Shown one piece after another: positions 2,795 to 62,481 of a stretch of 64,000 bases of DNA. The notes under the pieces were generated by a model. That model did no database searches. It saw only the letters and a program-made list of their open reading frames with translations, and had not been told where the DNA came from. The DNA comes from a virus, in IMG/VR virus record IMGVR_UViG_3300047311_000725; one strand, given 5' to 3'. How positions within the stretch are numbered: the stretch's first letter is position 1; each line of letters starts with the position of its first letter. The position numbers and the translations under genes are program-made.

Positions 2795-2800
2795 AGACCT

Positions 2801-2811
2801 ATTATACCACA
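2801..2811 (-). promoter_or_regulatory. extended -10 promoter element TGTGGTATAAT, 6 nt upstream of ATG of BGT-like gene (leaderless transcript likely)
   Basis: Plus-strand attataccaca; same element recurs at 16877, 47474 and variants at 11391, 7238, 36712, 63913. Confidence 0.5.
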
Positions 2812-2812
2812 G

Positions 2813-5389: not shown

Positions 5390-7219
5390 TTAGTGGGACT
5401 CGGGAGTGCCGCCGCCGTTGCTGCCGTTCTTCGAGAGGCCGTCCTTGATGAGGCCGGCCAGGAGGACGTTCACCAGGCCGCCCTGGTTGTTGCCGTCGAG
5501 ACCGCCACCGGCCATGATCTCCGGGACCAGGGCGTGACCGGACGAGGAGAGGGCGCGTGCCACCTCGATGAGGGCGTAGTTGGCCTTGCCGTTCGCGTCG
5601 GTCTTCTTCTGGATGACCTCGGCCTCGGCCGTGCCGACCGCCGTGATCTTCTTGCCCTCGGCGTCACCGATGGCCACGAGCACCTCGGCATCCGCCTTGG
5701 CGTTGATGGTCTTGGACTGGGCGTCGCCTTCCGCCTTCTTGACCGCCGACTGGGCGTCGAACTCGGCGATCTGGACCTTCCGCTGGGACTCGACGACGTT
5801 GGCCTGGGTGGCCGCCATCGCCTTGGCCTGCTCGAACTCCTTGCGGGTCTCCTCGGCCATGCGCTGGGTGTCGAACGTGATCTTCTCCTGCTCGGCGATC
5901 TTCCGCTTCGTCAGGGTCTCCATGAGGGCGTCCGGCGGGGTGATGTCACCGATGAGGGTGTCCACCGCTCCGACGTTGTACTCCTTCAGGGCGTTGTTGA
6001 TGGAAGCCCGGGCGTCCTGCTGGCGCTTCTCGCGCTCCTTGAGGAAGGCGATGGCGTCCGAGCCCTGGGCCGCGTTCCTGAAGTAGTTGCCGATGGTCGG
6101 CTCCAGGACCTGGGTGACCAGGTTGGCCACGCTGCCAAAGCGGGCGATGACCTTGGGGGCGTCGGTCCGGGGGATGTGGATGATCTGGCTCACGTCCAGA
6201 TTGAACTTGAAGCCGTCGGAGCTACGCACCGTGATGGTGGACAGGTTGGCGTCCAGCTTGTGCGCCTCGGTCTTGCCGGTCGCCCAGTTGAGGACGACGT
6301 TGGCCGTCGGCACGACCTCGACCTTGTGGGTGTACGGGTTGATCGGGTACTTGCCCGGGTCCAGCGGCTCGACCCACACACCCTTCTGCCCACGGACCAC
6401 GAGGTTGCCGTGCTTGAAGGACTCACCCGTGACGTCCACACCGACCCCACCGACGTAGGCGATGACCACGCCAGCATTGGCGATGGGCACCTCGGTCATC
6501 GGCTTCACTTCCACGGTGGCGAAGAGCGGGTTGATGTAGTACAGGCCGGCCAGGATGACCTGCTCCTGCAGGCCCTTGTAGCCACCGGCGGTGATGAAGG
6601 CCTCGCCGTCCTGGTACATGTTGTGGCCGGGGAACTCTCCGCCGGCGATGTCACCGGTCGAGAGGGGCTTGCCGTCCTTGGTGGTGACCACGCCGACCAT
6701 GTTGTCGGGGATCTCGAGAGCCTCCACGATCCTCAGGGAGAAGAGGACCGTGTTGATGCGGTAGGTGCCGGGGGTGATGATGGCGATCTGGGGACCACGT
6801 TCTCCGCCTGCCTCGAGGAAGGCGCGGGCGTTCTGGAACGAGTCACACTCGACCTTTCGCGCGAGGACTCGACCGTTCACCGGAACCTGGCCACCTCGCG
6901 ACTCGATGAGCCCGACGTGGTTCTCCGGGATGTTCACGAACTTCTGGAGGGTGACCGCGTACTGCCACGGCCAGAGGCCGAAGTGGACGCCAGGGGCCAG
7001 CGTGTCCGCCTGGAAGCCGGCCTCACCCTTCAGGGCGATGACGGCACCGTCGGGCAGGGTCTTCGCGCCGAAGAGGGCGAACTTCTTGTCGACGATGCCG
7101 ACCTCGTCCTTCGAGACGGAGACCATCCCGAAGCAGAGCCGGAGCACGAACTTGTAGAGCACGAGGGTCAGGACGATGGGTACGACCCACCAGAACGCGA
7201 GCACGGTTGCGATGGTCAT
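5390..7219 (-). CDS. flotillin / SPFH (band-7) domain membrane protein
   Basis: N-terminal TM helix, SPFH-like core, long Ala/Lys/Glu/Gln coiled-coil (KAEGDAQSKTINAKADAEV..), Gly-rich C-terminus; 609 aa. Confidence 0.75.
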   Translation of the reverse strand: MTIATVLAFWWVVPIVLTLVLYKFVLRLCFGMVSVSKDEVGIVDKKFALFGAKTLPDGAVIALKGEAGFQADTLAPGVHFGLWPWQYAVTLQKFVNIPENHVGLIESRGGQVPVNGRVLARKVECDSFQNARAFLEAGGERGPQIAIITPGTYRINTVLFSLRIVEALEIPDNMVGVVTTKDGKPLSTGDIAGGEFPGHNMYQDGEAFITAGGYKGLQEQVILAGLYYINPLFATVEVKPMTEVPIANAGVVIAYVGGVGVDVTGESFKHGNLVVRGQKGVWVEPLDPGKYPINPYTHKVEVVPTANVVLNWATGKTEAHKLDANLSTITVRSSDGFKFNLDVSQIIHIPRTDAPKVIARFGSVANLVTQVLEPTIGNYFRNAAQGSDAIAFLKEREKRQQDARASINNALKEYNVGAVDTLIGDITPPDALMETLTKRKIAEQEKITFDTQRMAEETRKEFEQAKAMAATQANVVESQRKVQIAEFDAQSAVKKAEGDAQSKTINAKADAEVLVAIGDAEGKKITAVGTAEAEVIQKKTDANGKANYALIEVARALSSSGHALVPEIMAGGGLDGNNQGGLVNVLLAGLIKDGLSKNGSNGGGTPESH

Positions 7220-7237: not shown

Positions 7238-7249
7238 TATTGTATCACA
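7238..7249 (-). promoter_or_regulatory. promoter-like CTGTGATACAAT (-10 TACAAT) followed by GGAGG RBS upstream of flotillin gene
   Basis: Resembles CTGTGATATAAT upstream of DnaE gene. Confidence 0.4.
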
Positions 7250-7547
7250 GTTTGCTGCCGTTGTGCCATTCTTTGAAGCGTTCCTTCTTCATCTGGTAGC
7301 GGGTGTACACGAACCCCGCGTCCAGCTGGCACTCCTCGATCACGAAAGAGCAGGCCGCCATCACGTCGGCGATCTCCTCCTCTAGGGCGCGTTTGAGGTC
7401 GGGGACGTTCCAGTGCTTGGTCTCTCCCCCGGTGCCAAGCAACTTGCCCACCACCTGGACGACCTCGCCGCACTCCTCGACGAGCTTCGAGAGCCCAGGC
7501 CAGAACGTCGACCCGATGCTGTACGGGCCGTTGTTGTCCTTGGTCAT
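7245..7547 (-). CDS. MazG-like nucleoside triphosphate pyrophosphohydrolase (paralog 1)
   Basis: EECGEVVQV ... EEEIADVMAA pattern (EExxE...ExxD) of all-alpha NTP-PPase fold; 100 aa. Confidence 0.65.
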   Translation of the reverse strand: MTKDNNGPYSIGSTFWPGLSKLVEECGEVVQVVGKLLGTGGETKHWNVPDLKRALEEEIADVMAACSFVIEECQLDAGFVYTRYQMKKERFKEWHNGSKL

Positions 7548-11390: not shown

Positions 11391-11401
11391 ATTATATCAC
11401 A
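11391..11401 (-). promoter_or_regulatory. extended -10 promoter CTGTGATATAAT 6 nt upstream of dnaE ATG
   Basis: Plus-strand attatatcaca; no SD between element and ATG (leaderless configuration). Confidence 0.45.
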
Positions 11402-11405
11402 GCTG

Positions 11406-11606
11406 CTACTTCGCGTCCAGGTTTCTGTCGATCATCTCCTTGACGTCGTCGACCGCCTTGTCCGGTCTCGTGTTGAACGCCGTGCCTACCCGGCTGCTCG
11501 CCTTGTAGACCACCTTGCCATTCCCGTCGACGGTGTAGCCTTCTTCCTTGAAGCGGGGAGCCTCGTCGACCGAGATGTCTTCCCCGCGGTGCTTGAAGGC
11601 GCTCAC
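11406..11606 (-). CDS. hypothetical protein (66 aa)
   Basis: Small ORF overlapping GroES gene stop by 4 nt. Confidence 0.45.
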   Translation of the reverse strand: MSAFKHRGEDISVDEAPRFKEEGYTVDGNGKVVYKASSRVGTAFNTRPDKAVDDVKEMIDRNLDAK

Positions 11607-16876: not shown

Positions 16877-16887
16877 ATTATACCACG
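16877..16887 (-). promoter_or_regulatory. extended -10 promoter CGTGGTATAAT overlapping first ATG of DHH gene
   Basis: Plus-strand attataccacg; identical core to elements at 2801 and 47474. Confidence 0.45.
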
Positions 16888-24237: not shown

Positions 24238-25140
24238 TTACGAGGCGGCGTTCTCGTCGACGGTTTCGCCGAAGGCCTCGTCGATGGACTTGCCACCCTT
24301 GAGACCGCCGGTGTCCTCGCCGGAGTTCGCTTCGTACTTCTCGGTGCCGCCCTCCGACTTCGCCTCGGCCGAACCACCGCCGATGAACTTGTCGAGCAGG
24401 ATGGCGACTTCCTCGGAGCTCTGCTCCGGGTAGACCTCACCGATCGGCTTGATGGACGTGAGGAGCTTCTTGAGCTCTTCCTTGTCCTTCGTGACCGGAC
24501 GGCCCTTCATGCTGGCCTCGGTGATCTCGGTCATCGGGCGGTTCTTCTTGTTGCCCTTCGCCAGCGGCTTGCCCGCGGCGTCCGAGAAGCGGATGTGGAT
24601 GTCGAAGGCCTTGTTCATGTCGAACAGGACCTTGAACCCCGACGCGTCGTCGGTCGGATCGAGATCGAGCATCTCCATCCGCTCCGTGTTGCTCATCAGG
24701 TCGATGAGCTTGTTGTTGTTGGTGAAGCCCGGCGACCACCACTTGGGGCCGTCCGGAGAGAGGGTGCCGTCCTTCATGCGCTCGACCAGACGGACGAACG
24801 CCTTCTCGGTCGGCTGGATCTTCTTGAAGATCTCGAAGTCGGCCTTGCGATCTCCCTCGGCCTTGTCTTCGCCATCCGGGCCCTTCCAGGCGCGGAGCTT
24901 CTCGCAGAAGTCGCAAACCTTGCAGGGCTTGCCGAAGTTCTTCAGCGGGCAGAGACAGCTGGCCCCACCGAGCTCGTAGTGGAACACGAGGATCACGAAC
25001 GGGTCGTGCTCCGGTCCACGCGGATCGGGGAGAAGACGAACGTCGTGCTCGTCCTTTGCCTTCCAGATGTCGTTTTGCTTCTTGCCCGTGCGCTGATTCA
25101 GTTGCTGGAGACGGGCTCTCATTTCGGCGAGTGATGCCAT
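24238..25140 (-). CDS. single-stranded DNA-binding protein, T4 gp32-like
   Basis: N-terminal LAEMRARLQQLN..WKAK...VRLLPDPRG..PFVILVFHYE resembles gp32 N-terminus; Cys cluster CLCPLKNFGKPCKVCDFC; acidic C-terminal tail. Confidence 0.6.
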   Translation of the reverse strand: MASLAEMRARLQQLNQRTGKKQNDIWKAKDEHDVRLLPDPRGPEHDPFVILVFHYELGGASCLCPLKNFGKPCKVCDFCEKLRAWKGPDGEDKAEGDRKADFEIFKKIQPTEKAFVRLVERMKDGTLSPDGPKWWSPGFTNNNKLIDLMSNTERMEMLDLDPTDDASGFKVLFDMNKAFDIHIRFSDAAGKPLAKGNKKNRPMTEITEASMKGRPVTKDKEELKKLLTSIKPIGEVYPEQSSEEVAILLDKFIGGGSAEAKSEGGTEKYEANSGEDTGGLKGGKSIDEAFGETVDENAAS

Positions 25141-25272
25141 GGCGGGTGTTGCTCCTTTCGGTTGTGAGACTCTAAAGTTGTTGGCGCCTTTCGCGCGCCG
25201 TGTGTGCACCGGTCTCTAAATGTGCACCTAATACATAGGCGTCTCAGGACGCTGTCAACCCTAAAAAGGAGC
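25141..25272 (-). promoter_or_regulatory. 132-nt 5' leader of SSB gene with two TCTAAA(G/T) motif copies, a GGCGCGCGAAAGGCGCC hairpin and AGGAGC RBS
   Basis: Unusually long structured leader in a genome where most genes have <20 nt spacers. Confidence 0.3.
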
Positions 25273-25819: not shown

Positions 25820-28800
25820 TTACTTCTGCTTCTTGAATGGGAACTTCTTCTTCGGATCGACCAGGCTGTAGGGAGAGGGAGTGACCTTCAGGGCCTTCAG
25901 CTCGGGGATGATCTCGTAACGACCGGTCCTGGATGCTACACGTACCCCCTTCCGTCCCGAGGTCACTTCGAACTGGGGGACGGGCGGATTGAGCTTGGAG
26001 AGACCGAACGGGTCCTCGTCTCCAAGAAGATAGAAGTCGTTGCCGAACTGCATGTACGGGGCGTTCTTGTACTTGTAGTGGGCGGCCACCAGCTGCTGCA
26101 CGTCCCCCGCCCCGACGTTCAGGTAGATGTAGCGGTTGCCCTTGCCTGCCGACTTCTTGTTGTCGATGAAGGCGTTGATCTCGTCCGGGGTCACGGCGTT
26201 CGGACTACGCTTCATGATGTCGGCGGGCTTCCCCTGCGACGGCATGGAGAGGACCTTGGGCACCGGAAGACCCTGCTCCTTGCGGCTCTTGGCCACGAAG
26301 GCGTGCAGTTCCTTCAGGAACTTCTGGGCGTCGGGGTTCGTCTCCAGGTCCTTGGCGATCCCGGCCGTGAAGCCGGTCTGCTCGCCCGATCCCTGCCACT
26401 TCCCGTCCACCAGCTTCATGCGGGCCGAGACGAGGTTGGCGCCGCCGGCCTCGGTGTACTTGGCCTCGATGTAGGCGCTCTTCCCGCCGATGGTCACCTC
26501 GACGTCCGCCTTCTTCGGATCGTTGCCACCGACGGCCTTGGCGTCGATGCCCTGGCTCTGGAGGGACTTGGCCACCAGGTGCTCGAACTGGTTGGAGGCG
26601 CGGTCAGACGTCTTGGCCTGAGTCTTCTCAAGGAGCCGCATGATCTCTTCCCCGATGGCCTTGGCCGTGTCGACACCCTTCAGCTTGTCGGACCAGAGCT
26701 CGAACTCTTCCGGCGCTTCCTGGTAGGCCGCGACGTCCTCGTCGGTGAACATGTTCTGCGGGCTGGACCAGCCGGAGCTTCCCGCCCTGAGACCTGCCTG
26801 AGTTCCGCCGGGGCCGCTTCCCGGGGTCATGGTGATGCCGATCTCGGAGATGATGGTCTCCATGATCTTCTCGAGCACGGGCGGTTCGCCGCCGTTGGTA
26901 CGGCCGCCCGGGTCAGAGAGCACGTACTCCCCGCCACGCTTCATGATGTTGTCGCCCTTGTAGTCGGCGAACATGATGTTGGCCTGCTTGAGCTCCGCCA
27001 TCATCTGGTCGATCTGGTACTTCTTCAGACCGCGCTCGATGTAGTCGATCTTCTGGTCGATCATCCGCTGGATCCGCTCGCGGTTCTTGGCGCCGGCAGA
27101 CACCAGGTCGCGAGAGAGCTCGTCACGGATCTTCTTCATGACCGTGTCGTAGTCCACGATGTGGGGCGCCCCGCCCGTGACTTCGGAGGAGCGGAGGTCA
27201 TCGACCAGGTCATCGACCTCGGTCTTCTCGGCCGGAGACAGGGGGTGTAGCTTCTCCCGGATGATTCCGTAGAGGGGCTTGTCGGGGTTTCGACGGTCGA
27301 TCATCCGGAAGACGTCATCGATCTTGACGACGTGCGGAAGGGTCTTTCCCTTGAGGGCGAGGCAGGACTTCGCCTCGTTGGGAGAGGTCGTCGCCTTGAA
27401 GACCTTGTTGTTGCCCATGTCGTAGGCCACGCCGACCTGTCCCGCTCCGAGGCGATGGAGCTGGTCGGCGTTGATGCCCTTGGCACGGAGCTTCTCCCCG
27501 TTGTTCTTGATGACGGCCATGATGGCGTTCTCGCCACCGAAGTCGGCGATGTCTTCCCGGAGCGGACCCTCGTTCTTGGCCAGCTCGTCCTTCAGATCCT
27601 TGTAGATGGACTCGAAGGTCGCCTGGTTCGAGGTGACATGCGGGTCGAGCATGCTCTTGACGGCGTTCCGGTCGTCCTTGGCCAGAGCCTGACGTAGACG
27701 GGTGCCGCTGATCCGGTCGGTGTCGTCGTCGTTCTTGACGCCCGGAAGCATCTTGACGACGGCCAGATCGGGATCGAAGTTGCTGTCTGCCGCCTTCCCC
27801 TGGGCCTTGTACTCCTTGGACCGGTCGATCTGCTGCTTCATCTGCTCGAAACGGTCGGGTCCGACCAGGATCTCGCAGGCCGTGTCGCCCTTCAGGGCGC
27901 TGCCCTTCCCGGCCACGTCGGAGAGGATGCCCGGGACGAAGCCGCTGTTCTTGCCGCCCGAGGTCGCCTTGTAGACCTCCAGCTTCCTCCAGACGTCCGG
28001 GAGGGACGCCTTCATGAGCTTGAGCCGGGTCTCGTAGGAGAACGGGTTCTTCTTGTCCGGCGTGTTGCCGGCCACCAGGACGATGGTCTTGGTGTGGGTA
28101 TTGGCGAGCTTCCGAATCACTTCGGCGTGACCCCGGTGGAACGGCTGGTAACGTCCTATGGTCACGCCCACCGTGTCAGCCTGGGCCTCCTCGATGTTTC
28201 GAGCGTACTTGTCGACCGTGCCGTCCTCGGTGTGATTCACGAGGCCGCCGTCTACGCCGACGTACTCCTGCTTGTCGTCCGTGTAGTCCGGCTTGCTCCG
28301 CTCTTCCAGGTCGTCGGCACGTCCCACCGGACCCTGGCCCTTGAGGCGCTGGGTACCGGAGAACTCCCGCATCAGGGTGTGGACGATCCGCTCGAGGACA
28401 GGGGGAGCCGCGCCCGGGCTCTGGCTGAGACCGAGGTCGATGACGACGTAGTCGTTGCCCCGCATCATCAGGTTCCCCTCGTGGTAGTCGAGGAACTCGA
28501 TACGCTGGCCCGCCAGCTCCTTGATGATCTCCGGAAGCTGGAACTCCTTCATCTGGGAGTCCATCAGCTTCTGGACGTCCTTGTCCTTGATGTGGAGCCG
28601 GACCTGGTCCATCACCTTGCCGTAGTCGCCCGAGAGGATGGCCTCGCCAGCCTTGCAGGCCTGCAGCAGGTCCGTCACCAGCTCGAACTCCTTCTTGTCG
28701 TAGGCCGACATCTGGGCGAGCTTTTCCTCGACGATGCCATAGAACTCCGACCCAGGGAGCTGGAAGACGTCGAAGATGTGGACCACGTGCTTGAGCTTCT

Positions 28801-31800
28801 TGTCCTTCAGATGGTTGGAGGACTTGGCTTCAAGGATGTCGTCCGTCACCTTCAGGACCCGACCTGCTCCGATGTCGAAGGCGATGCCGTGCGCCCCGTG
28901 TCCGAGCGGCTTGAGCGGTCCCTTCACGATCCCCTTCTTCTTGAGGAGAGGGAGCACGTCCCGGACCACGTCCATCATGGGACGGTCCTTCTGGGCCTTC
29001 TTACCGGCCTGAGCGGCCTTGAGGGCGGCCAGCCTGTTCGGCGGACCTTCGTCGAGGTACGGGACCTTGTTCTCCAGGACGGGCGGTTCCTTCCCGCCGG
29101 CGACCTTGGAGTAGCCGATGTCGATGAGAACGTAGACCCCGCCCTGGCGGACCATGATGTTGCCCGCGTGGTAGTCGTGGAACTTGATCCCCTTCGAGTT
29201 CAGCTCCTGCACCATCTCGTCGATATGCACCTTCTTCGTGATGATGTCCCACTGGACGTTCATCTTCTTGGCGTAGGCGATGGCGTACTTGTTGTCGATC
29301 TCGTCCGTCTTCCAGGTCGGGTACTTCTCGGCGATCTTCTTGAAAACGCCCTCCTGGCAGGCTTCCTTGGTCTTGTCCCAGTTGTAGCCCGAACGGTAGA
29401 TCGTCTCCTGAAGGTTGAAAGCGAGGATGGCGCGGTTCAGATCAGCCGCCTCTCCGCTGGCGTCCAGACCGCTGGGGTCCTTGCCCATGCCCGGGAACGG
29501 GGCGAGCTTCTCCTGGAGGATGCCGTAAACGGCGCCGACCAGTTCCTCGTCCTCACGGAAGCGGAAGACGTCCGAGAAGCGGGCGACGTGCTTCAGGTTG
29601 ACGTCCATCAGCTTGTAGGAAGCGACCGCCTCCTGCTCGTCGTTGGTGATCTTGAGGACCTTCCCTCCGACGTCGAACGCGACTCCACGTGTTCCCTTCC
29701 CGAGCGGGTGGGCCCCACGGACGTTGATCCCCCGCTTCGCCAGCTGGGGGATGTTCTTCTTGAGGATCTGCTGGGCCATCTCGGTCGTGACGCCGGTGGT
29801 GGCCTTGGGCGCGCCCTTGGTCTTGGTCTGGGCGACGCTGGTCTTGTCGAACCCCGAGGTCGGCTTCTGGCCGGTCTGCGGCTGGGTGGCCCCGTACGAA
29901 TCCACTCCGGGTGCTTCACGCATGACGGATTCCTCGGCCTCTTCCTCGCCGCCGCCCTGGAGCCTCTCCAGACGGTGCTGGCCGAGGAAGAGCTTCATGA
30001 TGGCTACCTTCTTGGTCAGGTCGCCCTTGAGCCCACCGATCGCCTCGGCGGCCTTCTGGAGCTCGTCCAGCGACTGGTGGGCCTGCTGGAAGTCCGTGTC
30101 CGTCCGCTGCATCACGAGCGGGTCCATCTTCCGGGTCTGCCCCTTGAGCTGGACGGTCGGCCCCTTCTTCTTCTCGGCGGCCCACTCGGCCTCGAGCTGC
30201 TTCATCTCGTTCTGAGCCTTGGTGATCTCGGCCTTGAAGGTCGCGACCGGGTCCTTTCCGCCGAAGGCCTTGTTCTTCTTCACCCACTGTCCGAGCAGGT
30301 AGTCGTTCTTCTTCTCGGGGGTGTCGGCTTCCTTCGGGTACTCTGTCTCGGAGTTCAGGGAAGAGAGCTGCCGGCCGAAGGCGGTGCTGGCCGCCTCAGG
30401 CTTCCCGATGACGTCGGTGGCCACCCGCTTCCTGAAGTCGGAGATGACGCCGTTCCGCCAGATGTTGTCGACCTTGGTCCCCTTGCCGATGAGACCGCGG
30501 TACTTCCAGTTGAACTGGTTGAGCTTCGTGAAGAGGTCCTTGTCGACGAGCTTGGTGAGCGCGCCGTTCTCCAGGTCACGGAAGACGATGCCTTCCACGT
30601 CCCCGCCTTCGGGACCGTAGGAGGACTTCTGCTTCCGGAGCTGTCCGACCAGCTTCTCCTTGACCGCCTTCTGGATCGCCGAGAAGCGCTCCATGGCCGC
30701 CTTGTACGGGCCCTTGCCCGCCGCCTTCAGCTTGTCCGGCTCGAGCTTCTTCAGCTCCTGGTAGATCTGTCCGAGGGAGGTGAACTCCTCCTTGACGTCC
30801 ACCATCACGTCTTCCGGGCTGATGACCCGCTTGTACTCGAACTTCCACGGGTCCTTGCCGTCCGTGAGCTGGCCGCCCGACTTCTTGATGAGGTCGTTGG
30901 CCACCTTCTTGGAGGCCTCGTCGGACAGGACCGCGTCGCCCTTGTGGACGCCGTGGATCATGATGACGTTCGGACCGTACTCGATGGAGTTCGGGATCTT
31001 GGTGTACAGGACCTCGGCCGTGAAGACGGTGTTCGGCGGGATGTTCTGTCCCACCGGCTTGGACTCGAGCGCCTTGTGGGCGTTCTTGAGAGCCGCGAAC
31101 ATCGGCTTGTCCGGCCACTCCTTCGAAGACTTCTTCGGAGTCCCGTTCTTGCTCTTGGTCCAGAGCTTTCCGTTCTCGGCACCGAACTCCATGCGGGCGG
31201 AGCCGTCCACCTTCTCGGAGACCTCGAGCCCGCCCTTGAGCGGCAGGTCCTTGTACTTCGCCAGGAACTGCAGGAACTCCTGGGGCTTCATGTCCTCGAG
31301 GTGAGAGATGCCGCCGCCCTCGTCGAGCTTGGCCGCCTTCAGCTGGCCCGGATCCGTCGACCACCAGATCTTGTCGATCCGGGTCTCGTGGGTGCCGGGG
31401 TTGAGCGCCTTGGCCGAACCCTTGGTCGCGGCGTCCGAACGCCCGCGGAGGATCGCCATGATGTTGCCCTTCCGTTCCGCAGTGGCCGCGGTGGTGGCAT
31501 AGACCATGGCCAGCTTCGGATTGGCGGACCAGTAGCCCTTCTTGTCGACCTTGCTGATCACCGCCGAGCCGTTCGGCTGGGACGGATTGCCGCCGAGCTT
31601 GGCGAGCTCCTGGGGAGTGAGACCACGGAGACCGCGGAAGACGACGCCCTCGGGCTCGTTCGCTTCACCGAGCTCCGACGGCTCGTCGTGCTTGGCTCCC
31701 TTGAGGAAGCCCTTCAGGTAGCCCTTGACCTTCTCCAGCTTCTTCGGATCCATGGTGGACTTGGCCTTGGCCCACACCTGCTCGAACGGCGCAGCCAGGT

Positions 31801-32725
31801 CCTTCACGGACCACGGCGTGCCGGTGCCCTTGGAGATGAGCTTGGCCACTTCCTCGGGATCACTGATGCTGGTGGCGTCCACACGGTCCGACTTGAACTC
31901 TTCCTCGCCCTTCTTGTTCTTGACCTTCCGACCGACCTTCTGGAAGACTCCCTTGGCCGGGCTGATGGACCAGAACTTGACCGAGCCGTCCGGCTGCGGT
32001 TCCTCGGTGGCGTACCGGAGGAGACCGAGGACGAGACCTGTGCGGGGAAGCGCCTTGTACTTAGACTCGCTCTCGCCAGGTCCATAATAGGAGAACTGGG
32101 TCCACGCCTCCGGACCGACCATCAGGTCGACCTGGGCGGAGAGCTTGGTGGGCTTGCCATCAGGGGTGTACTGCGGGAACTTGGAGTTGATCTCGCCCAG
32201 TCCCTTGGCGACCTTGTGCTCGATCCCCAGCTTCTTCAGGATGGCCGAGATCTCTTCGAGGGACAGTTCGGTGTCCAGGCCGAGGTCGATGTCCCCGCTG
32301 GACGCCTTCTTGCCGGTGGAACCCACGGGCTTCACGGACTTGTGCTTGACCTTGGAGAGGACCTGCTTCTTGTAGGCCTCGATCGTCGGTCCGACGTTCT
32401 CACGGGGGACACGGTCGGTCCCCATGGCGTTGCCGCCTTCGGTGAGATCGCTCTGGTCGGAGTAGGTGACGGTCGGCTCCTGTGCGGCGCCGGCATCGTC
32501 GGGGATGGGGGACTTGGCCAAGGGTGCCTCGCCTTCCTTCATGAAGGGGAACCGCTGCTCTTCGTCGTCCTCGAGACCGTCCGGCACCGGGTACCCGGGC
32601 TTGCCCGCACCACCGCCATGCCGGTTGTCGCCGGTCCCGCCGGCTGCACGCCCTGAGTAGTTTGGTTGAGACGCCCCGTAGATTGATCGGAGCGACTCTC
32701 GGATGATGTCGTCGAGCCGGGACAA
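25820..32725 (-). CDS. 2301-aa multidomain protein: ligase/capping-enzyme-like nucleotidyltransferase region + three tandem protein-kinase-like domains + HxGH (cytidylyltransferase-fold) nucleotidyltransferase domain
   Basis: KxDG motif SEKVDGSAR (~nt 31205-31225), later EGIVFR; three repeats each with Gly-loop/VxK (LGKGTRGVAFDVGGKVLK; LGHGAHGIAFDIGAGRVLK; LGAGQVGVAYDMGNNKVFK), catalytic D-x4-N (HDYHAGNIM; LDYHEGNLM; ADYKGDNIM) and DxG (DIG; DLG; DPG); TIGRYQPFHRGH HxGH motif (~nt 28130-28165). Confidence 0.85.
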   Translation of the reverse strand: MSRLDDIIRESLRSIYGASQPNYSGRAAGGTGDNRHGGGAGKPGYPVPDGLEDDEEQRFPFMKEGEAPLAKSPIPDDAGAAQEPTVTYSDQSDLTEGGNAMGTDRVPRENVGPTIEAYKKQVLSKVKHKSVKPVGSTGKKASSGDIDLGLDTELSLEEISAILKKLGIEHKVAKGLGEINSKFPQYTPDGKPTKLSAQVDLMVGPEAWTQFSYYGPGESESKYKALPRTGLVLGLLRYATEEPQPDGSVKFWSISPAKGVFQKVGRKVKNKKGEEEFKSDRVDATSISDPEEVAKLISKGTGTPWSVKDLAAPFEQVWAKAKSTMDPKKLEKVKGYLKGFLKGAKHDEPSELGEANEPEGVVFRGLRGLTPQELAKLGGNPSQPNGSAVISKVDKKGYWSANPKLAMVYATTAATAERKGNIMAILRGRSDAATKGSAKALNPGTHETRIDKIWWSTDPGQLKAAKLDEGGGISHLEDMKPQEFLQFLAKYKDLPLKGGLEVSEKVDGSARMEFGAENGKLWTKSKNGTPKKSSKEWPDKPMFAALKNAHKALESKPVGQNIPPNTVFTAEVLYTKIPNSIEYGPNVIMIHGVHKGDAVLSDEASKKVANDLIKKSGGQLTDGKDPWKFEYKRVISPEDVMVDVKEEFTSLGQIYQELKKLEPDKLKAAGKGPYKAAMERFSAIQKAVKEKLVGQLRKQKSSYGPEGGDVEGIVFRDLENGALTKLVDKDLFTKLNQFNWKYRGLIGKGTKVDNIWRNGVISDFRKRVATDVIGKPEAASTAFGRQLSSLNSETEYPKEADTPEKKNDYLLGQWVKKNKAFGGKDPVATFKAEITKAQNEMKQLEAEWAAEKKKGPTVQLKGQTRKMDPLVMQRTDTDFQQAHQSLDELQKAAEAIGGLKGDLTKKVAIMKLFLGQHRLERLQGGGEEEAEESVMREAPGVDSYGATQPQTGQKPTSGFDKTSVAQTKTKGAPKATTGVTTEMAQQILKKNIPQLAKRGINVRGAHPLGKGTRGVAFDVGGKVLKITNDEQEAVASYKLMDVNLKHVARFSDVFRFREDEELVGAVYGILQEKLAPFPGMGKDPSGLDASGEAADLNRAILAFNLQETIYRSGYNWDKTKEACQEGVFKKIAEKYPTWKTDEIDNKYAIAYAKKMNVQWDIITKKVHIDEMVQELNSKGIKFHDYHAGNIMVRQGGVYVLIDIGYSKVAGGKEPPVLENKVPYLDEGPPNRLAALKAAQAGKKAQKDRPMMDVVRDVLPLLKKKGIVKGPLKPLGHGAHGIAFDIGAGRVLKVTDDILEAKSSNHLKDKKLKHVVHIFDVFQLPGSEFYGIVEEKLAQMSAYDKKEFELVTDLLQACKAGEAILSGDYGKVMDQVRLHIKDKDVQKLMDSQMKEFQLPEIIKELAGQRIEFLDYHEGNLMMRGNDYVVIDLGLSQSPGAAPPVLERIVHTLMREFSGTQRLKGQGPVGRADDLEERSKPDYTDDKQEYVGVDGGLVNHTEDGTVDKYARNIEEAQADTVGVTIGRYQPFHRGHAEVIRKLANTHTKTIVLVAGNTPDKKNPFSYETRLKLMKASLPDVWRKLEVYKATSGGKNSGFVPGILSDVAGKGSALKGDTACEILVGPDRFEQMKQQIDRSKEYKAQGKAADSNFDPDLAVVKMLPGVKNDDDTDRISGTRLRQALAKDDRNAVKSMLDPHVTSNQATFESIYKDLKDELAKNEGPLREDIADFGGENAIMAVIKNNGEKLRAKGINADQLHRLGAGQVGVAYDMGNNKVFKATTSPNEAKSCLALKGKTLPHVVKIDDVFRMIDRRNPDKPLYGIIREKLHPLSPAEKTEVDDLVDDLRSSEVTGGAPHIVDYDTVMKKIRDELSRDLVSAGAKNRERIQRMIDQKIDYIERGLKKYQIDQMMAELKQANIMFADYKGDNIMKRGGEYVLSDPGGRTNGGEPPVLEKIMETIISEIGITMTPGSGPGGTQAGLRAGSSGWSSPQNMFTDEDVAAYQEAPEEFELWSDKLKGVDTAKAIGEEIMRLLEKTQAKTSDRASNQFEHLVAKSLQSQGIDAKAVGGNDPKKADVEVTIGGKSAYIEAKYTEAGGANLVSARMKLVDGKWQGSGEQTGFTAGIAKDLETNPDAQKFLKELHAFVAKSRKEQGLPVPKVLSMPSQGKPADIMKRSPNAVTPDEINAFIDNKKSAGKGNRYIYLNVGAGDVQQLVAAHYKYKNAPYMQFGNDFYLLGDEDPFGLSKLNPPVPQFEVTSGRKGVRVASRTGRYEIIPELKALKVTPSPYSLVDPKKKFPFKKQK

Positions 32726-36711: not shown

Positions 36712-36722
36712 ATAATATCATG
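36712..36722 (-). promoter_or_regulatory. promoter-like CATGATATTAT element 5 nt upstream of family-A polymerase ATG
   Basis: Variant of TGnTATAAT family. Confidence 0.3.
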
Positions 36723-44613: not shown

Positions 44614-44624
44614 CTAGGGAGTCC

Positions 44625-44835
44625 TCACTTGTGCTGGCGGCCGAAGGGGTCGGTGTGTCCGGGTCCCGTCGGGGTGTTCGCCTTCTTATGGTCCTCTCTC
44701 ATCTTCTCGACTTGCTGGAACCACCAGTGCCTCATGAACACCGGCATGTCCCATGCTTCCGTGAAATCGATCCGGCAGTGCTGAACGAGTGAGAAGATCT
44801 CGCCCCAGACTACCTCCTTGAAGGCGCCGGTCGTA
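44625..44835 (-). CDS. possible frameshift extension of upstream chaperone-like gene, or short independent ORF
   Basis: Protein-like 70 codons in the +1 frame immediately after stop of 44836..45675; AAGGAGGT present nearby; no ATG/GTG start. Confidence 0.25.
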
Positions 44836-59079: not shown

Positions 59080-59087
59080 TCTAAATA
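59080..59087 (-). promoter_or_regulatory. CTATTTAGA motif copy immediately upstream of gene 58768..59076
   Basis: ccatggttctaaatagcagg. Confidence 0.35.
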
Positions 59088-59094
59088 GCAGGCC

Positions 59095-62191: not shown

Positions 62192-62199
62192 TCTAAATA
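62192..62199 (-). promoter_or_regulatory. CTATTTAGA motif copy 35 nt upstream of scaffold ATG
   Basis: ctacatctaaataaagac. Confidence 0.35.
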
Positions 62200-62229
62200 A
62201 AGACGCCCAGAATAATTTCGCTCTTTTTT

Positions 62230-62481
62230 TTAGTTTCTCGATTCTCCGCGCTTGAGTTCCAAGCGTCGGTTGAAGTCTGCCCTTGCGCGCTTCCTCCGGT
62301 TCTTTACCGAAGGCTTCTCGTAGCCTCTACGCTGGTAGACTTCCTGTATGATGCCCTCATTCCTCACCTTCTTCATGAACCGCTTGATCATTCTTTCCGG
62401 CGATTCGTCCTTCCGGGGAGCCACCTCTACGTGTCTTGCCCGAACAGGTTCGTGCGAGGAATCCTTGCCCTTCTTCATCAA
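62230..62481 (-). CDS. rpsU: ribosomal protein bS21 homolog
   Basis: MIKRFMKKVRNEGIIQEVYQRRGYEKPSVKNRRKRARA aligns with E. coli S21 [36 protein letters not shown]. Confidence 0.8.
   Translation of the reverse strand: MMKKGKDSSHEPVRARHVEVAPRKDESPERMIKRFMKKVRNEGIIQEVYQRRGYEKPSVKNRRKRARADFNRRLELKRGESRN

Follow-up and report, generated by a model that had tools for sequence, protein, structure and literature searches.

In a 64,000-nucleotide (nt) stretch of viral DNA (IMG/VR record IMGVR_UViG_3300047311_000725; hereafter the window), several genes are preceded at very short distance by near-identical elements of the form TGnTATAAT, which resemble extended -10 promoters. This arrangement raises the question of whether the elements are promoters, and whether the messenger RNAs (mRNAs) made from them would be leaderless, with the start codon at their very 5' end. 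An earlier, sequence-only reading of the window had listed seven such elements before early or middle genes and had placed five of them (2801, 11391, 16877, 36712, and 63913) directly at start codons. The elements are named here after their positions; all coordinates are window positions, and the coding strand is the minus strand, on which all 62 called genes lie. Our analysis retained six sites, which are likely to be host-type extended -10 promoters. Three of them would give leaderless mRNAs, two would give leaders of about 3 nt, and one would give a leader with a Shine-Dalgarno (SD) sequence.

All seven listed sequences were found on the minus strand within 1 nt of where they had been placed, with two corrections: the element at 16877 reads CGTGGTATAAT rather than TGTGGTATAAT, and the hexamer at 7239-7244 is TACAAT. 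Six of the seven hold together as a family, and five of these six are leaderless or nearly so; the count of at least seven early or middle genes was too high. The sequence TGNTATAAT occurred four times on the coding strand against 0.04 expected, a number that none of 100 shuffles reached. TATAAT has only five coding-strand copies in the 64 kb, all of them non-coding or at the edge of a gene, and on the antisense strand it is seen once, as the palindromic overlap of site 36712. A relaxed motif was defined as TG, one base, and a hexamer with A2, T6, and at least five of six matches. In about 5.2 kb of non-coding sequence plus margins it yielded seven coding-strand sites, where 0.33 would be expected (Poisson P ~7e-8). 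Some of the segments counted as non-coding contain small uncalled genes, so this estimate of enrichment is conservative. In the 58.8 kb of coding interior the relaxed motif was absent, and the possibility that it is as common inside genes as between them was thereby rejected. The enrichment and the bias in strand and location thus bear out a real, strand-specific, intergenic extended -10 family.

The six sites also resemble one another in detail. Identical 9-11-mers recur among them. Four have the hexamer TATAAT, one has TACAAT, and one has TATTAT, all with A2 and T6. The TG one base 5' of the hexamer (-15/-14) is present at 2801, 7238, 11391, 16877, 36712, and 47474 and is invariant in all orthologs. 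The -35-like hexamers match TTGACA at only three to four of six positions with a spacing of 16-17 nt, a weak -35 region as in typical extended -10 promoters. Sites 11391 and 2801 were the top sigma70 matches of their region (10/12 plus TG), and classical -35/-10 promoters were not enriched in the window. The distance between the upstream stop codon and the ATG is 18-21 nt at 2801 and 11391 and 41 nt at 16877 and 36712; contexts of the sites read TATAATAG, TATAATAC, TATAATGG, and TATAATTC. An Rfam scan returned tRNAs only and no family overlapping the sites. A spacer 5' of the hexamer, GCWGCWAACTGTG, is common to 2801, 7238, and in part 11391 (2807-2825, 7245-7263, and 11397-11413, minus strand); it exceeds what sigma contacts need and could reflect a common origin or an additional binding site.

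The genes directly behind five of the elements differ from the rest of the window in their translation signals. Most window genes have a GGAG-type SD sequence, with a median anti-SD duplex of -6.55 kcal/mol. For the genes behind 2801, 11391, 16877, 36712, and 47474, the duplexes range from +0.6 to -3.1 kcal/mol: -3.0 for the 403-amino acid (aa) protein, +0.6 for DnaE, -3.1 for the DHH protein, +0.6 for the family A DNA polymerase (PolA), and -2.8 for the 167-aa orphan. All five belong to the 21 of 62 genes with a weak SD (hypergeometric P ~0.003), a count made with uncorrected gene starts. The absence of an SD sequence behind the elements, as originally proposed, is therefore confirmed at five genes. 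The five starts are all ATG, and the N-termini are conserved for DnaE, PolA, the 403-aa protein, and the DHH protein.

Three of these starts lie at the distance that a leaderless transcript would demand. With the hexamer at -12 to -7, a 6-nt gap places the A of the ATG at +1, which is the spacing at 2801 and 11391; at both, this A is preceded by T, giving the preferred pyrimidine-purine start. The DnaE start is marked by M[LI]KEFAS[FL]HNHSHF in 30 of 30 inspected homologs, a few of which have short extensions, and that of the 403-aa gene is fixed by the N-terminus MR[IL]GYS, kept in the relatives L096, L097, L098, and L100-L102. PolA begins with MEE[LF]DL in homologs down to 54% identity. This conserved N-terminus and an in-frame TAA inside the hexamer in L113 rule out an in-frame ATG at 36721 as the start of PolA. 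A leaderless placement is accordingly predicted for 2801, 11391, and 36712, whose verified ATGs are at +1 distance; it did not hold for 16877, with its predicted leader of about 3 nt, or for 63913, a stop/start junction.

The PolA element provided the best view of what is conserved. It reads TGATATTAT in the window and in L114 (85% aa identity), TGATATAAT in L113 (89%), and TGATATAGT in L115 (71%), i.e., all four lineages, the most distant at 71% aa identity, have TGaTAT(A/T)(A/G)T followed by 5 nt and ATG. In the intergenic alignment, TGATAT..T and the ATG make up the invariant columns, and the pyrimidine-rich upstream part drifts. Within the element only hexamer positions 4-5 vary, with TG, T1, A2, T3, and T6 fixed; judged from the alignment, this variation is the one that sigma-DNA contacts would predict. 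A search of IMG/VR with PolA returned no loci.

The two near-leaderless sites, 16877 and 47474, are paralogous, with a common CTGTAC at -35, GTGGTATAAT, and TTCAC(A/G) directly before the ATG. A CA at positions 7-8 after the hexamer is conserved at both, from which leaders of 3 nt are predicted. At 16877 the predicted +1 is the A of this CA, 8 nt after the hexamer, with a leader of about 3 nt (ACA); at 47474 the predicted leader is also about 3 nt (ACG). The first in-frame ATG of the DHH gene (16878-16876) overlaps the hexamer, and the second lies 10 nt after it. The suggestion that the second ATG is the true start was supported by the ortholog in L098, whose MLPKPE aligns with MALPVPE, and by the JGI gene call on the contig that contains the window (Ga0495640_0000011, JGI 3300046533; ~204.7 kb, 204,678 bp). 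That call uses the second ATG; the Logan gene call uses the first. The element is kept as GTCGTGtTATAATGGAcTTCACAATG in L083 and L084 (RNR 93% identical), with three changes in 47 nt, and the flanking coding sequence shows many synonymous changes in the same relatives. A 5-bp hairpin without a T-run (GCCTG-TACT-CAGGC; 16907-16894) overlaps the -35-like hexamer. Site 47474 lies in a 98-nt gap after a strong intrinsic terminator. L105 and L106 (87% aa) have an unrelated gene upstream and no terminator, and the block from TGTAC to ATG is kept there with TGTGGTATAAT and the 10-nt spacing; homology with the window begins at the -35-like TGTAC itself.

Site 7238 is the leadered member of the family. 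The TGA of its TGTGA is the stop codon of an upstream MazG-like gene, and the SPFH gene behind it has an SD duplex of -9.3 kcal/mol. The seventh listed element, 63913, was rejected as a promoter. It lacks the TG, and the TAA within its hexamer (63916-63914) is the stop codon of an upstream open reading frame (ORF) that is conserved at the codon level. The TATAAT is not conserved, since L002 (86% aa) reads GCGTAATAATAGGTG at this point, with GCG TAA TAA TAG GTG across the junction. With 4 nt between hexamer and start, +1 would fall inside the GTG or beyond it. Its sequence context makes a stop/start junction in the head (late) module the better explanation of 63913. A weak match at 63137-63142 (TGgAATAAT) is of the same kind, holding the upstream gene's TAA in the late module, and was likewise rejected. 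The coordinates of all sites are collected in Table 1.

Table 1. Retained and rejected elements, their downstream genes, and the second intergenic motif of the window
Feature	Extent (strand)	Parts 5' of the hexamer	Hexamer	Hexamer to start	Start codon (strand)	Downstream gene and remarks
P2801	2792..2829 (-)	TTCTCA, -35-like, 2829-2824; TGTGG 2811-2807	TATAAT 2806-2801	discriminator AGGTCT, 6 nt	ATG 2794-2792 (-)	403-aa protein, no assigned function; predicted +1 = A of ATG
P11391	11382..11419 (-)	TGGACG, -35-like, 11419-11414; TGTGA 11401-11397	TATAAT 11396-11391	discriminator ACTCCT, 6 nt	ATG 11384-11382 (-)	DnaE (DNA pol III alpha, 1175 aa); predicted +1 = A of ATG
P36712	36704..36720 (-)	TGA 36720-36718	TATTAT 36717-36712	ATGCA, 5 nt	ATG 36706-36704 (-)	family A DNA polymerase (PolA), 479 aa
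P16877	16864..16905 (-)	TGTACT, -35-like, 16905-16900; CGTGG 16887-16883	TATAAT 16882-16877	GGATTTCACA, 10 nt	ATG 16866-16864 (-)	DHH/DHHA1 phosphoesterase
P47474, terminator-promoter cassette	47461..47534 (-)	hairpin + T-run 47534-47509; TGTACT, -35-like, 47501-47496				
P47474, core	(-)	TGTGG 47484-47480	TATAAT 47479-47474	TCTATTCACG, 10 nt	ATG 47463-47461 (-)	167-aa orphan protein, between tail tube and baseplate hub genes
P7238	7217..7249 (-)	TGTGA 7249-7245	TACAAT 7244-7239	19-nt spacer with GGAGG SD 7229-7225	ATG 7219-7217 (-)	SPFH/Band 7 protein, 609 aa
63913 (rejected)	63906..63918 (-)		GGGTATAAT	4 nt	GTG 63908-63906 (-)	256-aa protein, no assigned function
(C/T/G)TATTTAGA, six copies	616-624, 48106-48114, 52997-53005, 59080-59088, 62192-62200, 63097-63105 (-)					

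Distant relatives of the phage bear TGTGrTAnnAT elements on the coding strand at places that are not orthologous to those of the window. Three coincide with independently called gene starts: L098 19853 (7 nt), L110 15549 (7 nt, a Metallophos gene), and L111 1687 (6 nt). Further elements of the TGTGATATAAT type lie 6-7 nt before the ATG of an uncalled 90-codon ORF in L110 (5741; ORF region 5728-6013) and before unannotated ATGs in L111 (5944 and 20621), whose ORFs have only 15 and 30 codons. Other copies, at L110 13507 and at L111 870 and 20259, stand 19-24 nt from starts and 5' of a normal SD, as at 7238. Gene finders trained on SD sequences may overlook leaderless genes in this phage family.

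The findings are best accounted for by a mechanism in which the primary-sigma RNA polymerase holoenzyme of the host would read elements of the form T/C-G-T-G-n-TA(T/C)(A/T)AT with little or no contribution from a -35 region. Within long arrays of genes on one strand, the elements occupy 18-41 nt intergenic gaps or follow a terminator, and they would supply replication and nucleotide-metabolism genes with transcription starts of their own. At 2801, 11391, and 36712, with the hexamer 5-6 nt before the ATG, transcription would start at the A of the AUG, and the leaderless mRNA would be translated by direct binding of the 70S ribosome and fMet-tRNA to the 5' AUG, with no need of an SD. Sites 16877 and 47474 would give a 3-nt leader, and 7238 a normal short SD leader. 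Because five of the genes lack an SD, read-through transcripts, including late ones that cross PolA, would be poorly translated, and the protein output of these genes would be tied to the firing of their own promoters. For PolA, whose gene lies directly 3' of baseplate (late) genes on the same strand, an own promoter and the missing SD would uncouple expression from late read-through.

Several observations weigh against this mechanism. The best leaderless candidates, 2801 and 11391, have no close relative in which conservation could be assessed, and in relatives at 51-76% identity their genes overlap the upstream gene, lie directly against it, or are preceded by an SD. The predicted 5'-end structures of the five mRNAs were no less structured than those of other genes. 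At the sites with 10-nt spacing, 2-4 extra nucleotides at the 5' end would be expected to matter, as they lower leaderless-type initiation in E. coli. When the elements of six relatives were pooled, an ATG at 5-7 nt was modestly enriched (6 of 35 against 5.5% expected, P = 0.011), and two of the ATGs counted open ORFs of just 15 and 30 codons. The antisense control (2 of 14) was not separable from this result. The AT-rich relatives dilute the pooled statistic.

The same relatives bear on the age of the two sites. Relatives at 51-55% lack the 2801 element, and DnaE overlaps or abuts its upstream gene in those at 63-76%, so P11391 is specific to the lineage of the window. From these comparisons, P2801 and P11391 look like recent gains. 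A metagenome scan with DnaE gave two spurious short matches only, and a degenerate DNA pattern for the DnaE N-terminus had no match in IMG/VR. One relative, L096 (a 23.4-kb Logan contig, ERR14949452), has a DnaE 76% identical to that of the window and a GC content of 39.5% against 61.7%, a shift unusually large for phages with such similar core proteins. Its orthologous sites are without leaderless-type elements.

Four other explanations were weighed. In the first, a variant of the proposed mechanism, the host polymerase would read the elements only after remodelling by the phage, through an AsiA- or gp39-like factor or a phage sigma, and the elements would be middle rather than early promoters. 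The weak -35 regions and the lack of enrichment of classical -35/-10 promoters in the window are what such a switch would leave behind, and T4 AsiA is known to spare extended -10 promoters. In phage P23-45, gp39 and gp76 inhibit -10/-35 promoters and spare those with a TG(TG)-extended -10 (PMC5758890). However, no AsiA, MotA, gp39, gp76, or sigma homolog was seen among the window proteins, with 64 of ~205 kb searched, and a conserved MotA-box-like motif at -30 is absent. We regard the variant as rather unlikely.

In the second explanation, the promoters are real and contribute little, and most expression of the genes comes from long polycistronic transcripts, through termination-reinitiation or 70S scanning, with leaderless mRNAs as a minor species. 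The upstream stop codons are indeed close to the ATGs (18-21 nt at 2801 and 11391, 41 nt at 16877 and 36712), several other SD-less genes of the window sit at stop/start overlaps, and the overlap or abutment of the DnaE and 403-aa genes with their upstream neighbors in relatives makes coupling the ancestral mode. Nevertheless, SD-less gaps of 18-41 nt are long for efficient coupling, and 47474 follows a strong terminator in a 98-nt gap. Coupling would also require no conserved element, no TG, and no exact spacing, all of which are kept as neighboring bases drift. This explanation appears improbable.

A role at the RNA level is still less probable. The element would then be an A/U-rich, unstructured landing site for the ribosome (S1) or, by analogy with T4 RegA and gp43, an operator for a translational repressor. 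It does lie exactly in the initiation regions of SD-less replication genes, at a genomic GC content of 62% an AU-rich patch would have no structure, and T4 controls its replication genes translationally. Yet the conserved letters, TG-n-TA...T, follow the pattern of sigma contacts rather than AU-richness, with a G tolerated at position 5 (TATAGT, L115), and weak -35-like hexamers lie 16-17 nt upstream. The same motif occurs 19-24 nt from starts and 5' of an SD at 7238, L110 13507, and L111 870 and 20259, and directly after a terminator at 47474. Finally, AT-rich patches left by chance where stop codons and gene boundaries fall in a GC-rich genome, an origin that does apply to 63913 and 63137-63142 and that the stop codon within the TGTGA of 7238 recalls, are scarcely credible for the six retained sites, given seven occurrences against 0.33 expected, recurring 9-11-mers, strand specificity, and conservation in relatives even across a synteny break.

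The reading of the six sites as host-type extended -10 promoters also fits the division of labor among the promoters of the window. The genes behind the TGTGnTATAAT class encode DnaE, PolA, the DHH and SPFH proteins, neighbors in a nucleotide-metabolism cluster, and one orphan. A second motif, (C/T/G)TATTTAGA, occurs six times on the coding strand, each time between genes, and with one mismatch allowed gave eight matches on both strands against 1.56 expected. The genes behind it are those of the tail sheath, the tail tube, and the head module. Its 59080 copy lies 3' of a terminator found by the scan (59127-59100) and ends just 3 nt before the ATG of a 102-aa ORF; that at 52997 lies 3' of a hairpin visible in the intergenic sequence, where the terminator scan gave a plus-strand hit only (53012-53029). 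By its position, this motif is probably a late promoter class, the counterpart of T4 TATAAATA. An early or middle role fits the elements, because their genes serve replication and nucleotide metabolism and the structural genes bear the other motif; gene content thus supports a division into early/middle and late promoter classes, with timing inferred. PHROGs and Pfam searches of about 45 window proteins found no homolog of sigma, anti-sigma, MotA, AsiA, gp33, or gp55. In a 150-nt intergenic region (25123-25272, minus strand) 5' of the gene with its start at 25140, a perfect TTGACA stands before the hairpin GCGTCCTGAGACGC, and there are in addition two TTTAGAG late-like motifs, CACATTTAGAGAC and CAACTTTAGAGTC.

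The window also encodes a ribosomal protein bS21 homolog (ORF 62230-62481, minus strand; PF01165, 46.5 bits against a cutoff of 27), located in the head module and missed by the gene call. The phage family has conserved this protein, for instance as P0206 on a 197,068-bp contig. bS21 supports the anti-SD, and E. coli ribosomes without it favor leaderless mRNA (PMC10491246); mycobacteria are without bS21 (PMC6101614, PMC5876184), and a connection between phage bS21 and late-stage expression has been drawn (PMC9723584). A speculative link between bS21 and two initiation modes may be drawn from this. Leaderless replication mRNAs would be gated by their own extended -10 promoters and SD-led late genes would be served by the phage bS21, the ribosome being switched between the two modes. 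We consider such a pair of translation regimes very doubtful.

The source of the window is an uncultivated T4-like soil phage of ~205 kb, a divergent T4-like myovirus and not an evident actinophage. Its GC content is 62% (61.7%), with about 0.9 at third codon positions (GC3). No deposited phage matched the window at the nucleotide level. The gp23-like major capsid protein shows 35-39% identity to its counterparts in a metagenomic jumbo phage, Flavobacterium phage immuto, and Rhodothermus phage RM378. The family comprises large environmental phages with ~200 kb genomes and a DnaE-type polymerase, with homologs from 76% down to 43% identity, and one DnaE-carrying relative originates from farmland soil. 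A host search with the major capsid protein against 185,579 species genomes found mis-binned metagenome-assembled genomes (MAGs) only, and the bS21 homologs gave no host clue: all were metagenomic proteins, and the matches to bS21 in the PDB were weak and uninformative. Family contigs of up to 197 kb (L111, GCA_054637615.1 JBTSRE010000006.1; L116-L119) were deposited as parts of bacterial MAGs under the labels Acidiferrobacterales, Gammaproteobacteria, Flavobacteriales, and Planctomycetes; these are probably binning artefacts, unusable as host evidence.

Other features of the window may be listed briefly. A giant ORF of ~2255-2301 aa (25820-32725, minus strand) lies between the replication and baseplate regions. 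A cluster of three tRNAs (45795-46029, minus strand) was resolved by ARAGORN into two tRNA-Ile(AAT) and one without an assigned type; Rfam confirmed two, and a strong terminator (45794-45762) lies 3' of the cluster. Two stretches on the minus strand that the gene call had left non-coding have coding-like GC3 in one frame and may represent uncalled genes or a frameshift. In the first, 44614-44948, the frame is that of ORF 44625-44948 (107 aa), and in the second, 48051-48634, that of ORF 48177-48905, which overlaps the end of the gene for a 539-aa virion protein in another frame.

To our knowledge, leaderless extended -10 promoters have no earlier description in this phage lineage. If the proposed reading is true, the strategy extends from Thermus phages and from Deinococcus and Actinobacteria to ~200 kb T4-like environmental phages, a family that is widespread. 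It would have a bearing on annotation rules for such phages, as gene callers disagree on or miss the starts behind the elements, and it suggests, as a clue to the host, ribosomes that handle leaderless mRNA well. It would also explain how a DNA polymerase gene 3' of baseplate genes could follow a different expression schedule. The finding opens no new mechanism, and its parts can be compared with known systems.

T4 itself is the nearest by genome type. T4 middle promoters have a good -10, often with TGn, no -35, and a MotA box (consensus TGCTTtA) centered at -30, and they precede replication genes. The genome type and the -10-led promoters before replication genes are alike, but the aligned sites show no MotA box at -30, and T4 transcripts carry SD leaders. 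The sites are not T4-like late promoters either: the hexamer contexts do not match TATAAATA, the downstream genes serve replication, and the structural genes bear TATTTAGA. The promoter-early stem-loop (PeSL) cassettes of the T4-type phages RB49 and phi1 join a sigma70-like promoter to a terminator stem-loop in intergenic gaps, often beside orphan genes and at synteny breaks (PMC2839356). The anatomy of site 47474 is exactly of this kind, including the synteny break with L105 at its -35 edge. PeSLs, however, have -35/-10 boxes with an AT-rich region upstream and an SD in front of the ATG, and they form repeats of ~100 bp in ~50 copies. Here one of six sites has a stem-loop, the similarity spans ~15-40 nt, five of six sites are without an SD, and the genes are mostly core replication genes. 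The sites were therefore rejected as members of the PeSL class, with neither the stem-loop composite (a terminator hairpin at 47474 only) nor the ~100-bp repeats.

Leaderless phage transcription is known from lambda PRM-cI, where +1 is the A of the AUG and the 70S ribosome translates from the 5' AUG (PMC10491246). This is likewise a phage promoter with +1 at the AUG, but it serves a single regulatory gene of a temperate phage from an activator-dependent -10/-35 promoter and not a family of replication genes. In cellular genomes, a -10 motif ~6-7 bp 5' of ORFs drives leaderless genes in D. radiodurans (PMC12340547), and TANNNT ~10 bp 5' of the start marks leaderless genes chiefly in Actinobacteria and Deinococcus-Thermus, and also in Acidobacteria and delta-proteobacteria (PMC3160421). 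The adjacent -10 (at three of the sites), the missing SD, and the coexistence with GGAG-type SD genes are shared with the window. These cellular genes differ in their degenerate TANNNT, usually without TG; the phage elements have a near-consensus TATAAT with TGTG, and two members have a 10-nt spacing.

The most similar promoters are those of Thermus phages. The middle and late promoters of P23-45 lack a functional -35 and have an extended -10 with TG(TG) between -17 and -14 (PMC5758890), and the middle and late mRNAs of phiYS40 are mostly leaderless (PMC3594737, a review). The likeness covers the TG(TG)-extended -10 form and the use of the host polymerase for non-early genes. The Thermus phages are unrelated to the gp23-type, T4-like phage described here, whose elements precede replication genes rather than late genes. 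No homolog of their gp39 or gp76 was seen in the window, its late genes bear TATTTAGA, and its elements are known from sequence only. The promoters of Thermus phages are the closest sequence-level precedent for the elements of the window, and the link to actinobacteria drawn at first reading would be one of analogy.

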